Source: Anaerolineales bacterium (GTDB taxonomy: Bacteria; Chloroflexota; Anaerolineae; Anaerolineales; UBA11579). Taken from it: a DNA stretch of 64,000 nucleotides. The stretch lies in contig OY776212.2 of assembly GCA_963675375.2 (NCBI GenBank), positions 3,152,567 through 3,216,566 of the forward strand. Direction: 5' to 3'. The notes beneath the pieces were generated by a model. It had not been told where the DNA came from. It did no database searches and saw only the letters and a list, made by a program, of their open reading frames with translations. This document shows, piece by piece, positions 3,749 through 8,359 of the stretch (positions are counted from its first letter, which is position 1; each line of letters begins with the position of its first letter). The translations under genes and the position numbers were made by a program.

Positions 3749-5244
3749 TCTCCTTTTTGTGGATTTGCAGGAGAGACCGCAAACCAATTTTCAATTTCCA
3801 GCCATTCAGGAGCAGGGCGGAAGCCTGCAAAACGGCCATCTGGCGGGTGGCGGTACTCTTGTGCATCTGGCATATCAAAAGCGCTTTTCTGCATCCAGAC
3901 CAATACGTCATTGACCAAACCGGTTGGGTCATTCACATCCGCAGTTTTCGCCAATTCGTGTACCCAATTGCTCTTACGGCTGAAGGGACAAACAGCCAGA
4001 CACAGCCGGCAGCCCAACGGCCCCATAGCTTCCATCCAGAAATTGAAGCATTTGGCGGTGTTGACGTACCAATGTTCGTATCCACGCAGTTCCATACCTT
4101 CTGGGGAATCTTCCATGCTGATCGCCCCGGATGGACATTGTTCTGCACAAATTTTGCAAGTGTTGCAAAAATCGGCTACGCCAAAATCAATGGGCTTGTC
4201 CACAGTCATCGGCACATTTGTAGTCACAACTGCCAAACGAAGGTTTGAACCGGTTTCTGGGCAAATGGTGTACCCGTGGCGACCGGTCTGACCAATCCCA
4301 GCATCCACCGCGATCGGTGGGACAACCAGATCATAGTGGGTAGGCGGGTGATGAGAGCGGGCTGGATAGCCGATGGACTTGATGAAGGCTGTTAAGCGGC
4401 CAGCGGCATTCCGCACCCGGTTGTAGCCATCGTAGCTGGTACCGTGCGCCGGGTTAGATAACATCTGATCCCACTCATGCGGGACGCCGACAACAATGGC
4501 ATATTCCCAATGAGCCGGCACTTCGTACGGGCCAGGTTCACCACCGCGCAAATTGCTGTCATAGCAAAAGTCTGGGTTGAGCTTGGTGATTCCGACAATG
4601 GTCGCACCGTACTGGTGTGCAATCTTCTTGATCAACTCAGCGGCATGGTCTGGGCTTTTAAATGGCAATGGTTCACCAATTTCATGTACTTCTGTACCGG
4701 CAAGACCAAAGCGGGTCATCTTATAATCTGAAATTTCTGGGGGTTCGGTGGGTTCAGGCGGGTAGAAATTGAAGAGTTCTTCCCAGCCGTTTGCATACGC
4801 ATCTGCAAGCGCAAAATACGCATCATATTTCATGTGGTTTTCAGCAGCAGTAGGCATCACCACAGTCTGACATTCCCAATCCAATTCCAGCGTTTCCGGG
4901 TTCTCCTCGTAGAACTTAGCTAACGGCTCAGGAAAAGCGTCCAAGCTATCACCCAATTTCCACCCGGCGGCTACTGCCTGACCAAAAACACCCGTGCGGG
5001 CAAAAACATAGTCGGTAAGGTAGCCAGGGCGTCTGATTTCACCCACTACTTTGTAAGGTTTGTGATCAATTTCAAACGCTTTGCGGTTGAAGGTTTGTTC
5101 CACACCCTCAAAGTTTTTGTATCCGGTATAACTATCGATATCTTCTCCAGCGGCCAAACCAGAACCAGCAAAACCAATTACTTGCAGGGCTACCCCAGCC
5201 GCTCCCCCTATCTTCAGGAAATCTCTTCGTGAGAGTTCTCCCAT
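3745..5244 (-). CDS. rdhA: Reductive dehalogenase catalytic subunit homologue (RdhA family, corrinoid/Fe-S)
   Basis: 499 aa. Twin-arginine signal MGELSRRDFLKIGGAAGVAL. C-terminal CNTCKICAEQCP and C-x15-CRLCLAVCP ferredoxin-like motifs in the arrangement typical of RdhA. AAGGAGG Shine-Dalgarno at 5251-5257 (reverse strand). Confidence 0.8.
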   Translation of the reverse strand: MGELSRRDFLKIGGAAGVALQVIGFAGSGLAAGEDIDSYTGYKNFEGVEQTFNRKAFEIDHKPYKVVGEIRRPGYLTDYVFARTGVFGQAVAAGWKLGDSLDAFPEPLAKFYEENPETLELDWECQTVVMPTAAENHMKYDAYFALADAYANGWEELFNFYPPEPTEPPEISDYKMTRFGLAGTEVHEIGEPLPFKSPDHAAELIKKIAHQYGATIVGITKLNPDFCYDSNLRGGEPGPYEVPAHWEYAIVVGVPHEWDQMLSNPAHGTSYDGYNRVRNAAGRLTAFIKSIGYPARSHHPPTHYDLVVPPIAVDAGIGQTGRHGYTICPETGSNLRLAVVTTNVPMTVDKPIDFGVADFCNTCKICAEQCPSGAISMEDSPEGMELRGYEHWYVNTAKCFNFWMEAMGPLGCRLCLAVCPFSRKSNWVHELAKTADVNDPTGLVNDVLVWMQKSAFDMPDAQEYRHPPDGRFAGFRPAPEWLEIENWFAVSPANPQKGE

Positions 5245-5324
5245 ATTGTGCCTCCTTTCAAAAGGACATGGTGAGTGGGTTCAGCACAAACGCTGCAGGT
5301 ATCGACATCGACACCCTCTTCTCT

Positions 5325-5456
5325 CGAGACACAAGCTCTAACCAAATATCTGACTTCCTGCAAAAAAGCAGGTCACAGTTGCGGGACAGTGCCGGAATAG
5401 ATCATTAAAACGATCTTCACCGACTTCCTTGGATAGACTGGAACCCTGAATAAGTA
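5325..5456 (-). promoter_or_regulatory. Cobalamin (B12) riboswitch-like 5' leader of rdhA
   Basis: Minus-strand RNA reads ...CUAUCCAAGGAAGUCGGUGAAGAUCGUUUUAAUGAUCUAUUCCGGCACUGUCCCGCAACUGUGACCUGCUUUUUUGCAGGAAGUCAGAUAUUUGGUUAG... This contains the GGAAnnnGGUGAA, CCCGCAACUGU and AGUCAG (B12-box) elements. CUAUCCAAG pairs with UUUGGUUAG to close the junction. Boundaries are approximate. Confidence 0.7.
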
Positions 5457-5500
5457 CGCTTTATTCTAAAAAACTTGTCCTAATGGGAAAATACTTAATT

Positions 5501-5518
5501 TGTGTGATTTTTCACACA
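5501..5518. promoter_or_regulatory. Perfect palindrome TGTGTGA-TTTT-TCACACA (candidate transcription-factor site)
   Basis: 7-bp arms with a 4-bp spacer. Lies about 35 bp upstream (minus-strand sense) of a TAGAAT -10-like hexamer at 5463-5468 and of the riboswitch 5' end. Confidence 0.5.
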
Positions 5519-5535
5519 CGCCCCCTGTTTTCGAA

Positions 5536-5551
5536 TCACACAAAAGTGTGA
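5536..5551. promoter_or_regulatory. Perfect palindrome TCACAC-AAAA-GTGTGA (second, permuted copy of the same half-site)
   Basis: 6-bp arms with a 4-bp spacer, 10 nt after the stop of the LuxR-type regulator gene. Uses the same TGTGA/TCACA half-sites as 5501-5518 in the opposite arrangement. Confidence 0.5.
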
Positions 5552-5561
5552 GGAGGTAAAC

Positions 5562-8294
5562 TTAAACCCGATTTTTCATAATTCCTAATTGTGTGGCCCG
5601 ATTGATCGCTTGTGTCCGGTTGTTCACTTCTAATTTCGTATAAATATTCTTGATATGTGACTTTAGAGTATTCTCGGAGATCATCAATTCTTGAGATAAA
5701 TTTTTATAACTCAAACCAGCGGCTAACAATTGGATCACATCTAGTTCGCGCAAGGTAAGAAGTTGATAAGACTCTGGCTCTCGATAACGAATACCCAACT
5801 TAGAAAGCCGGGTGTTTTCTTCCTCAAAAGCGTGCACAAGCTGAGTGATATATGTCTGGATTGATGGAGAAATTTGCATCTGTTGATTTTGGGATAATGC
5901 CACCAATAACGAGTGTATTCGCCAGCCTTTATCCAAAAATGAGCGCACATACCCCTCATCCACAGCAATTTCTAATAGATGTAAAAGTAATTTTTGCGCC
6001 TGGTTATAGTCTCCTGCCTGGTCATACGCTAATACTAAAGTTAAACCTATCTGGATCAGATCCCATTGACGCTCTTGGCTTTGGGCTAATTCGTACAACT
6101 TTAAAATCAAATCCATCACTTCTTCAGTTCTTTGCTCATGGAGCCATACCAAGGCCAGCACACGCAATTGGTAATCTATTGATGAATTAAAATCCTCATC
6201 TAATGGTGGAACTACCATGCCGGAAGCCCAGCGGAGTGCATTGTCAAACTGCCCTTGGGCCAAATAATTGCGCGCCTGGATCGCTTCCAATCCAGCAATG
6301 ACTGTTTGGGGGCGTCCATTCTTATTGGCGACTGTTTTTGCATACGCCAACTTCTCTTCAACAAGGGTATATTCTCCCAACGCAATCTTTATCTTGGCAA
6401 AGCTCAAATAGCCTATTAATAACCGTTCAAGATAATCACCATTCTCAGCAATCTGTATTCCCTCTTCAAAGAAAGATTCTGCCTGAGCCAGGTCATTCAT
6501 CTCATAATACAAATTTCCCATCCCAATAATTGCGTTTGAGAACACATTGCTTTTATGCACGCCCATCATAGTGGACTGACGACTGATTTCATCATAGTAT
6601 TTTCGTGCCAGGGACAGTTCGCCCTGTGCAGCCACCGATTGTGCATGGTAAGAAGACCATAATAAATTCATCAGGGGATAATTGATGATCTCTATCATTT
6701 CCATGGCCTTCTTTAGCGAGCTGCGCGCTTGTACTACATTGCCCAGGTGAAGACACGCCGAACCATAATGCCCGTAAGCGATACATTGCCCCAAGAGTTC
6801 ATTCTCTGGAAGTAATGCGGCTGCTTTTTGAGTCAACTGCCGGGATTTAACCGCATCGATTTTGCTGTGAACTGCCACCGCGGCTAAAAAAACAGACTTG
6901 TAGCCAATAATGATATCTTTCTCTGCCTGAGATATCTCAGGCAATTGATCCAGATCATTCCAAATCCAATCAATAATACGCTCCGATTCTTTAAAATCTC
7001 CCTTATCCAACCACGCGATCACATAATGCTGCCATAATTGTCCAACTCGGCGTAAAATATCCTTTGGAATACTTTGCATCCAGCGAATTGCCTGATCGCG
7101 TCCACCACTCGAAATAATCTTTGTGATTCTTGGGTCAATCAGCTGGGCGGCATATTCATATTCTTCCCCTTCTAAGCCATATTCAATCGCCTCTTCCATA
7201 TAATTATGGGCTTCAAACCATTGTGCCGCTCGTAAATAATGGGTAGATTGAAATTTCCGTAAGAGGCTGGGCTGATTTTGTAACAATTCAGATAGCAAAT
7301 GATGATACCGGTACCAGGTCCGTTTATTATCCAGGGGGATGATGAATAAATTTGCATGGATTAAATAATCAATGATTTCTTGGCTGTTGTCTGTTTCCAG
7401 GACATCATCACAGAGAGGTGCGGAAAAACGCCTAAGCCCTGCGGTCAGCGCCATAAATTGCTGCACTTCTTCAGGCTGATGAGAAAAGACCTCGTTGAAT
7501 AAGTAATCCCCGATCAACCGGTCGTCCCCTGACAAATATTGAAGGATATCCTCTACCTCCGGATCATTCCTGGTACTGATCGCCGCCAATTGCAAGCCAG
7601 TCACCCACCCCTCCGTATGCTGATCTAGAAGGTTGACTTGTTCGGGAGTAAGGTTCACCCTAAAAAATTTTCGGACGAATTCAGCGGTCTCTTGGTAATT
7701 GAATCGCAAATCGAACGTATCTATGACCAAGGCCTGATTTTTTGCCCGAAGATCCGTAATTGAAAAAGGCAATTCAGCCCGGCTGGTGATCACAATTTGC
7801 AAATTGGGCGGCAAGTTTTGCAGCAGGTAAGAAAGAGCGTAATGGACTTTAGGGTCACTAATCAAGTGAAAGTCATCCAGCACCAAATGGGTATAGCTGC
7901 GCATGCAAGCCAGGTCGTTGATGATGAAAGTAAGTAATGTGTCGATAGGTGGGGGGTCGGGCGAGCGAATGATGCCGAGAACTGAACTACAAATACCAGA
8001 ATCTACTTGCTGTAATGCAGATATACAATAAGAAAGAAAACGTCCGACATCATTATCTGCCTGATCTAAAGAGTACCAGGCGACAGCCTCCGTACTTTTT
8101 GAAAACCACTCTGTAAGCAAAGTTGTTTTTCCATATCCCGCCGGGGCAGTAACCAAGATCAGTTTTCTTTCTTTACCGGCAATCAGTTGATCGACCAAAC
8201 GAGGCCGAACAACCAATTCATTCCGCACTTTGGGAATATAAAGCTTTGTAACTAATAAATCATTTAGATGGGGGTTTTTCGGATCATATTCCAT
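5562..8294 (-). CDS. MalT-like STAND ATPase / TPR-like helical repeats / C-terminal LuxR-type HTH transcriptional regulator
   Basis: 910 aa. Walker A APAGYGKTTLL, Walker B-like HLVLDDFH, a long helical repeat region, and a C-terminal LTLRELDVIQLLAAGLSYKNLSQELMISENTLKSHIKNIYTKLEV (GerE/LuxR HTH). Confidence 0.8.
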   Translation of the reverse strand: MEYDPKNPHLNDLLVTKLYIPKVRNELVVRPRLVDQLIAGKERKLILVTAPAGYGKTTLLTEWFSKSTEAVAWYSLDQADNDVGRFLSYCISALQQVDSGICSSVLGIIRSPDPPPIDTLLTFIINDLACMRSYTHLVLDDFHLISDPKVHYALSYLLQNLPPNLQIVITSRAELPFSITDLRAKNQALVIDTFDLRFNYQETAEFVRKFFRVNLTPEQVNLLDQHTEGWVTGLQLAAISTRNDPEVEDILQYLSGDDRLIGDYLFNEVFSHQPEEVQQFMALTAGLRRFSAPLCDDVLETDNSQEIIDYLIHANLFIIPLDNKRTWYRYHHLLSELLQNQPSLLRKFQSTHYLRAAQWFEAHNYMEEAIEYGLEGEEYEYAAQLIDPRITKIISSGGRDQAIRWMQSIPKDILRRVGQLWQHYVIAWLDKGDFKESERIIDWIWNDLDQLPEISQAEKDIIIGYKSVFLAAVAVHSKIDAVKSRQLTQKAAALLPENELLGQCIAYGHYGSACLHLGNVVQARSSLKKAMEMIEIINYPLMNLLWSSYHAQSVAAQGELSLARKYYDEISRQSTMMGVHKSNVFSNAIIGMGNLYYEMNDLAQAESFFEEGIQIAENGDYLERLLIGYLSFAKIKIALGEYTLVEEKLAYAKTVANKNGRPQTVIAGLEAIQARNYLAQGQFDNALRWASGMVVPPLDEDFNSSIDYQLRVLALVWLHEQRTEEVMDLILKLYELAQSQERQWDLIQIGLTLVLAYDQAGDYNQAQKLLLHLLEIAVDEGYVRSFLDKGWRIHSLLVALSQNQQMQISPSIQTYITQLVHAFEEENTRLSKLGIRYREPESYQLLTLRELDVIQLLAAGLSYKNLSQELMISENTLKSHIKNIYTKLEVNNRTQAINRATQLGIMKNRV

Positions 8295-8359
8295 ATTCGA
8301 AATTCATTGCAATTAAATTTACAGCCATTAGTATATCAGATATGTAAAATCACACATTA

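Follow-up and report, generated by a model that had tools for sequence, protein, structure and literature searches.

A candidate four-box operator for a MalT-like regulator upstream of a reductive dehalogenase operon in an Anaerolineales bacterium

Two perfect palindromes are located between a gene for a MalT-like STAND/LuxR regulator and the promoter of the neighboring reductive dehalogenase gene rdhA in an Anaerolineales genome. Judged from the comparison of 13 loci, they are very probably protein-binding regulatory DNA elements. We consider it probable that the adjacent regulator binds both of them as one four-box operator of the rdhA promoter. The DNA analyzed was a stretch of 64 kb, referred to below as the window, and the coordinates of the features discussed are collected in Table 1.

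The palindromes and the rdhA promoter region

The regulator gene and rdhA are both encoded on the minus strand, and rdhA is followed by rdhB, a gene for a TPR protein and a gene for an RdhC-like protein. The regulator stop codon occupies positions 5562-5564. A sequence-only reading of the window had described two exact TGTGA/TCACA palindromes 17 bp apart, located between this stop codon and the -10 hexamer of rdhA. Both the palindromes and their placement were confirmed by reading the window sequence. The proximal palindrome TGTGTGA-TTTT-TCACACA (5501-5518) and the distal palindrome TCACAC-AAAA-GTGTGA (5536-5551) are perfect, and the gap between them spans 5519-5535. The same reading had assigned one half-site to both palindromes. 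This holds for the hexamer GTGTGA/TCACAC, which is spaced by N4 in both, but not for the pentamer TGTGA/TCACA, which is spaced by N4 in one palindrome and by N6 in the other. Altogether four hexamer boxes (TCACAC/GTGTGA) are packed into 51 bp.

Table 1. Positions of the genes, palindromes and predicted control elements in the window.
Feature	Position	Strand	Description
MalT-like STAND regulator, 910 aa	5562..8294	minus	NOD/winged helix/arm, TPR_MalT sensor, C-terminal GerE/LuxR HTH; proposed to bind the boxes
rdhA, 499 aa	3745..5244	minus	TAT signal, two 4Fe-4S motifs (Pfam); first gene of rdhA, rdhB, TPR protein, rdhC
Distal palindrome	5536..5551		Gene strand TCACAC-TTTT-GTGTGA; spans about -95 to -80 relative to the predicted start; 10 nt past the regulator stop codon
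Proximal palindrome	5501..5518		Gene strand TGTGTGA-AAAA-TCACACA; spans about -62 to -45 relative to the predicted start
Invariant box, promoter-side arm TCACAC(A) of the proximal palindrome	5507..5501		TCACAC at -51 to -46
AGGGGG run between the palindromes	5521..5526	minus	AGGGGG, GGGGAT or GGGGGAT there in 8 of 11 aligned loci
Predicted -35 hexamer TTTTCC	5486..5491	minus	TTTACC in most orthologues; 9-10 nt past the proximal TCACAC box, 17 nt before the -10 hexamer
Predicted -10 hexamer TAGAAT	5463..5468	minus	TAnAnT-type; in register in most loci with a proximal box
AdoCbl (B12) riboswitch aptamer	5337..5437	minus	Rfam RF01482, 44 bits (gathering score 50), E 6.8e-7; in the rdhA leader

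The palindromes exceed what is expected by chance. TGTGA-N4-TCACA was found once in the window against 0.08 expected, and 4 of the 18 GTGTGA hexamers in the 64 kb fall inside 50 bp. The 16-mers of both palindromes are unique in the genome (4.87 Mb, two contigs). The genome-wide search for more copies that had been proposed in the sequence-only reading therefore returned each palindrome only once, and near-matches to either were at chance level except for one at C1:599537. Across the 13 orthologous loci described below, the hexamer density was 23.8 per kb in the 110 nt following the regulator stop codon and 0.24 per kb elsewhere, which is an enrichment of about 100-fold.

A scan of positions 5100-5700 for consensus promoters and terminators found nothing, and the promoter was subsequently placed by conservation across the orthologous loci. 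The -35 hexamer is weak, with three to four of six matches to TTGACA, and was missed by the consensus promoter scan. In the loci with a proximal box the -10 hexamer reads TAGAAT, TAAAAT, TACATT, TAAAGT, TATACT, TAAATT, TAAACT or TACACT, while L029 reads CACAAT at the fixed -10 offset. Transcription would start near 5456. No match was found when the window was scanned against Rfam at the gathering threshold. The match to the AdoCbl riboswitch is sub-threshold but clear, and it begins about 19 nt downstream of the predicted start. The position of the riboswitch in the leader confines the promoter to roughly 5500-5440. The B12 riboswitch core was found conserved in all orthologous rdhA leaders (L024-L035 and L037). 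In most of these the core is followed by a clean terminator hairpin with a T-run just before the ribosome-binding site. The window (leader 5249-5456, minus strand) and its 96% relative L023 have no clean T-run at that spot, and their expression platform may therefore differ from that of most orthologues.

Conservation of the boxes in orthologous cassettes

We found 12 further loci with the gene order regulator, intergenic region, rdhA, rdhB, rdhC in metagenomes, giving 13 together with the window. The loci were drawn from contigs of a large protein collection and from one metagenome contig. Their regulators are 36-96% identical to that of the window, and their RdhA proteins 65-81%. The flanking genes vary between the loci while the gene order is the same, and the cassette is thus a portable unit.

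The sequence-only reading had proposed to look for conservation upstream of orthologous rdhA genes, and such conservation was found for both elements. The distal palindrome TCACAC-N4-GTGTGA is kept in 11 of the 12 other loci, with nearly invariant arms and a varying spacer (TTTT, AAAA, AAAT), and is located 0-44 nt past the regulator stop codon in 12 of all 13. Eleven of the 12 others likewise keep the proximal TCACAC box. Counting the window, it is placed 9-10 nt before a weak -35 (three to four of six matches) in 12 of 13 loci, so that several boxes are found upstream of a weak promoter. The start-to-start distance between the distal and proximal TCACAC boxes is 40-47 nt, mostly 44 nt. In an alignment of 11 loci AAAA-CACAC was invariant, and the arm with its flanks, AAAA-TCACAC-AAA, essentially so. 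On the left side of the proximal palindrome many orthologues have a degenerate arm (TATGTGA, AATGTGA, ATTGTGA). L024, L029, and L034 are among the loci affected, the arm being lost in L029 and L034, and in L037 it is displaced by 2 bp. By this comparison the proximal and distal palindromes are not equivalent. L035 has kept the distal palindrome and misses the proximal box, while L030 has kept the proximal box and misses the distal palindrome; neither element is therefore indispensable.

The G-run between the palindromes is present in the closer relatives, and in three loci a C-rich stretch on the 5' side of the distal palindrome could form pairs with it. This AGGGGG/GGGGAT run loosely recalls the TGGGGA boxes of another MalT-like subfamily.

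When the DNA of the intergenic region was searched against 40 relatives, it returned the short riboswitch core only and no conserved palindromes, RdhA relatives in species-representative genomes (45-59% identity) had different upstream contexts and no boxes, and the combined box pattern was not found in 400 other genomes sampled from the same class. For the second rdhA paralogue of the genome (C1:693084) we found neither boxes nor a MalT-like neighbor. The region upstream of this paralogue (L014, C1:692166-693030) carries two to three copies of a repeat of about 100 nt (…cgcgatctacccataagggcgtcctctgggacgccc…) and no TCACAC boxes, with a TetR-family gene downstream.

No conserved box was found upstream of the regulator genes among the orthologous loci. 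The window has a single TGTGTGA-TTTT about 60 nt upstream of the regulator start codon (TGTGTGA at 8351-8357, minus strand), within insertion-element debris. Because it is not conserved even in the 96% orthologue, which has ATGTGA, it is probably a chance occurrence, and autoregulation through an upstream box was dropped. In L025, L026, and L031 a stretch reading GGATTTGATATACTTGTCTTGGTCAA or similar is conserved about 20-50 nt upstream of the regulator start codons. It is absent from the window and is probably the own promoter of these three regulators.

DNA sites, RNA hairpins and the candidate binding proteins

Transcribed into RNA, the palindromes could form hairpins at the 3' end of the regulator transcript, acting as a terminator without a U-tract or as a stabilizing stem-loop and not as DNA sites. 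The sequence-only reading had described the hairpins as weak, A/U- and G/U-rich and without U-tracts. The lack of U-tracts stands, since the stems are followed by UUCGAAAACAGG and AAAUUAAG, and the number of terminator-like sites in 5100-5700 was zero. The stems are not G/U-rich, however, but perfect Watson-Crick helices of -7.8 (distal) and -8.1 kcal/mol (proximal). The distal fold has a z-score of -4.8 and its place just past the stop codon in 12 of 13 loci would suit such a role, as would the flanking C/G pairs that can lengthen the distal stem in several orthologues. Against this, the stems are conserved as sequence. Among the 11 aligned loci, pairing in the distal helix amounts to 96.7%; four of its six pairs are the same in every locus, and compensatory pairs are absent. 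The proximal helix is 74% paired; five of its seven pairs break without compensation in the orthologues, and a compensatory pair was found at one of seven. The pairing conservation of either helix was not above that of shuffles (156-194 of 500). A hairpin also leaves the recurrence of the hexamer at a fixed distance from the -35 unexplained, and in other MalT-like subfamilies a separate canonical terminator is present, with the box arrays located after it. We therefore regard RNA hairpins as a very unlikely explanation. That the stem sequences are kept while the spacers vary, with no compensatory pattern, indicates that the sequence and not the pairing is conserved, which is the signature of sequence-specific recognition. 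The earlier preference for protein-binding DNA sites over terminators is upheld by the conservation across loci, the lack of compensatory changes in the stems and the fixed register with the -35 and -10 hexamers. Since flanking C/G pairs extend the stem in some loci, there is some room for a residual hairpin role of the distal element. An extended C-run/G-run helix around the distal palindrome was seen in three close relatives only and was not adopted, and an Rfam match to RnaG over the palindromes was set aside as noise (E 0.24).

The adjacent regulator has the domains of a MalT-type protein, namely a NOD ATPase, a winged helix/arm, a TPR-type sensor and a C-terminal LuxR/GerE HTH. Residues 14-375 match the NOD-arm structure that has been solved for E. 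coli MalT (8BOB, E 2.7e-50), and the Pfam matches include TPR_MalT (9.5e-49) and GerE (3.6e-16). WHD_MalT was recorded for the orthologous regulators. The last 70 residues, comprising the HTH, are nearest in sequence to the DNA-binding domains of VraR, ChrA, GerE, and NarL (E 1e-11 to 1e-7). The HTH residues N875, T876, L877, K878, I881, and K882 are invariant across the orthologous regulators, and no regulator gene other than the MalT-like one is found with the boxes in all 13 contexts. One hexamer is common to both elements in at least 10 divergent loci, suggesting that the two have the same binder.

Regulators with other recognition helices are accompanied by other boxes. The palindrome TGATGACATCTCA (GATGA-catc-TCATC) occurs exactly three times in the genome (C1:965507, C1:1673809, and C1:1682609), each time 30-100 nt past the stop codon of a MalT-like paralogue with the helix ..INTVKTH... 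On metagenome contigs, regulators with ..LSTVRTHTK.. are followed by TCCCCA arrays in four of six loci (L039, L054, L069, and L071). Each of these arrays contains a TCCCCA-N4-TGGGGA inverted pair, and its final direct box abuts a TATATT -10. Arrays of CCGCAT/CCACAT with the same design were found in L060, L064, and L068; of these, L060 and L068 showed the helix ..SINTVRHHNR.., and for L064 the helix was extracted incompletely. Together with the rdhA cassettes, four helix classes are thus found with four box types, a co-variation that is a correlation across loci. The exact TCACAC-N4-GTGTGA was found in none of the regulator relatives of about 30% identity, and a loosened palindrome pattern flagged one of these, L044 (ATCACCC-CCCT-GGGTGAT). 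For MalT it has been described that inducer-triggered multimers bind cooperatively to several MalT boxes and then recruit RNA polymerase (PMC4381067). The co-variation of helix and box together with this published mechanism makes the adjacent regulator the best candidate. Of the binders named in the sequence-only reading it is thus the LuxR-type neighbor that is favored: the cassette travels together, and the palindromes of other subfamilies track the recognition helix.

As for the arrays themselves, the other-subfamily regulators from metagenomes are followed by three to five copies of their own hexamer, with one N4-spaced inverted pair and the last direct box next to the -10; this array design looks like a general operator grammar for the MalT-like family. 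All three TGATGACATCTCA copies precede cytochrome/flavoenzyme genes and have a Rex-like TGTG-N8-CACA box after them, a sister design to the rdhA boxes.

In the mechanism that we propose, the two palindromes would form one array of four TCACAC/GTGTGA boxes upstream of an activator-dependent rdhA promoter. An inducer sensed by the TPR domain would lead to ATP-dependent multimerization of the regulator, by analogy with MalT, after which its LuxR-type HTH domains would occupy the distal inverted pair and the proximal element cooperatively. The proximal element has its invariant TCACAC box 10 nt upstream of the weak -35. RNA polymerase would be recruited, and transcription starting near 5456 would proceed through the B12 riboswitch leader into rdhA-rdhB-TPR-rdhC. 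From the weak -35 hexamer we infer that the regulator acts as an activator and not as a repressor.

Other proteins were considered as binders. The sequence-only reading had likened the palindromes to boxes of the CRP/FNR family, to which the classical rdh regulator CprK belongs. TGTGA/TCACA are indeed CRP half-sites, two 16-mers inside the proximal 18-mer match TGTGA-N6-TCACA at 9 of 10 positions, and the genome encodes four HTH_Crp_2 proteins above the family cut-off. In CRP boxes (TGTGA-N6-TCACA) as in FNR and CprK boxes (5-N4-5) the dyad is equivalent to GA-N6-TC. The proximal core is, however, GA-N4-TC and not GA-N6-TC, and thereby 2 bp shorter, so that only off-centre 16-mers reach 9/10, and the left half is not conserved. 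The distal palindrome is divergent, has the opposite polarity and is unreadable as a CRP/FNR site. No gene for a cNMP-binding or CRP/FNR protein was found among the cassette loci with gene calls (L037 has no calls), and the centre predicted near -53.5 corresponds neither to -41.5 nor to -61.5. Binding by a CRP/FNR-family regulator in the manner of CprK on its dehalobox is accordingly not favored, and we consider it extremely improbable. It is also most unlikely that the boxes are bound by another transcription factor encoded outside the cassette. A further factor is hinted at by the conserved AGGGGG run that separates the palindromes, but the MalT-like gene is the only regulator that travels with the boxes through different contexts, and the co-variation of subfamily and box points to the cognate neighbor.

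A rival that was absent from the sequence-only reading, and that refines its view of the proximal element, is Rex, a repressor that senses NADH/NAD+. The proximal palindrome would then be a Rex operator, instead of or in addition to an activator site, with only the distal palindrome left for the MalT-like regulator; Rex on the proximal box would block the activator at low NADH. The genome encodes one Rex homologue (PF06971, 72 bits, C1:540787). Its AT-rich TGTG-N8-CACA sites carry the half TTCACAAT and match the published Rex operator TTGTGAAW4TTCACAA, which is of the form TGTG-N8-CACA (PMC2883068). Such sites are biased to non-coding DNA (12 of 15 in the genome), adjoin redox genes, and lie just downstream of the operators of three MalT-like paralogues. 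A site at C1:599537-599554, probably a Rex operator, differs from the proximal 18-mer by one arm base, and the proximal element itself matches the Rex consensus at 11 of 14 positions in the window and at 12 of 14 in L033. This score is not distinctive, however: it ranges from 7 to 12 of 14 in the orthologues, and 241 sites score 11/14 genome-wide against about 180 expected by chance. If the element is aligned as a Rex site, the invariant TC of the TCACAC box is placed partly in the spacer and partly at a position that mismatches the consensus, so that the invariant positions are off the Rex-critical ones; selection for Rex binding would not hold this TC fixed across 11 loci. TTCACAA was found in no orthologue, a Rex site is 2 bp longer than the true dyad, and a location upstream of the -35 is unusual for a repressor. 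L029 and L034 score just 7-8 of 14 yet retain the TCACAC box. Taken together we find it unlikely that the proximal palindrome serves as a Rex operator. An activator box and a Rex site may overlap, which of all outcomes would be the most interesting. By extension the cassette might be a portable rdh module with three stacked controls, a MalT-like activator on the TCACAC array, a Rex-type site overlapping the proximal box for redox gating, and the B12 riboswitch. This is a speculative reading that we hold to be doubtful. If true, it would mean that reductive dehalogenase regulators comprise a new, fifth class, found in uncultured Anaerolineae-like bacteria, and that its first operator is thereby defined.

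The site at C1:599537-599554 is located 180 nt upstream of a gene for a GltD/NfnB-like oxidoreductase, with no MalT-like gene nearby, and about a dozen similar non-coding sites were found beside redox genes.

Comparison with known regulatory systems

The rdh regulators that have been worked out experimentally are CprK of the CRP/FNR family, the MarR-type RdhR, and two-component systems. Like the CprK dehalobox and the RdhR operators, the palindromes described here are located upstream of an rdhA promoter and beside a dedicated regulator gene. The regulator family, the box sequence, and the geometry all differ, and among the gene calls of the cassettes there is neither a CRP/FNR nor a MarR gene. 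The presence of LuxR-type genes beside some rdh clusters has been mentioned (Desulfoluna; PMC7031245), and in the open literature searched we found no operator described for rdh-linked LuxR-type regulators. What is new is the box sequence and the target operon; the design itself follows the MalT paradigm and is unsurprising. The analysis provides a concrete, conserved candidate operator and promoter for an rdhA-linked MalT-like regulator from at least 13 environmental loci. The candidate operator is testable without cultivating the organism, and a reporter on the rdhA promoter could be used to screen for the inducer, possibly an organohalide substrate.

The E. coli MalT system resembles the present one both in the homologous architecture of the regulator (NOD/arm, TPR/SUPR sensor, GerE HTH) and in the presence of several short boxes of mixed orientation upstream of a weak promoter. 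At E. coli MalT promoters the proximal box is located at roughly -37.5, whereas the proximal box here is centred near -48.5 and does not overlap the -35. The cassettes further differ in having tight N4-spaced inverted pairs and in their target, an rdh operon whose leader carries a B12 riboswitch. In E. coli the MalT box has a G-rich consensus, GGGGA(T/G)GAGG. The boxes found here read TCACAC/GTGTGA, with only the intervening AGGGGG run being G-rich, and an E. coli-type MalT box was rejected.

The distal site also fits the form of a 7-2-7 inverted repeat (TCACACA-AA-TGTGTGA in L026), which resembles the sites of NarL/VraR/GerE-type proteins; NarL sites consist of heptamers in a 7-2-7 inverted arrangement. 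Unlike the present regulator, these proteins are response regulators or consist of a stand-alone domain.

The MalT-like (LAL) paralogues of the same genome share the order of regulator gene, subfamily-specific N4-spaced palindrome past the stop codon, and promoter, with a Rex-like TGTG-N8-CACA nearby. Their box GATGA-catc-TCATC abuts the -10 and the Rex-like box is located at about +1, whereas the rdhA palindrome is placed far upstream, with a second element of the same hexamer next to the -35.
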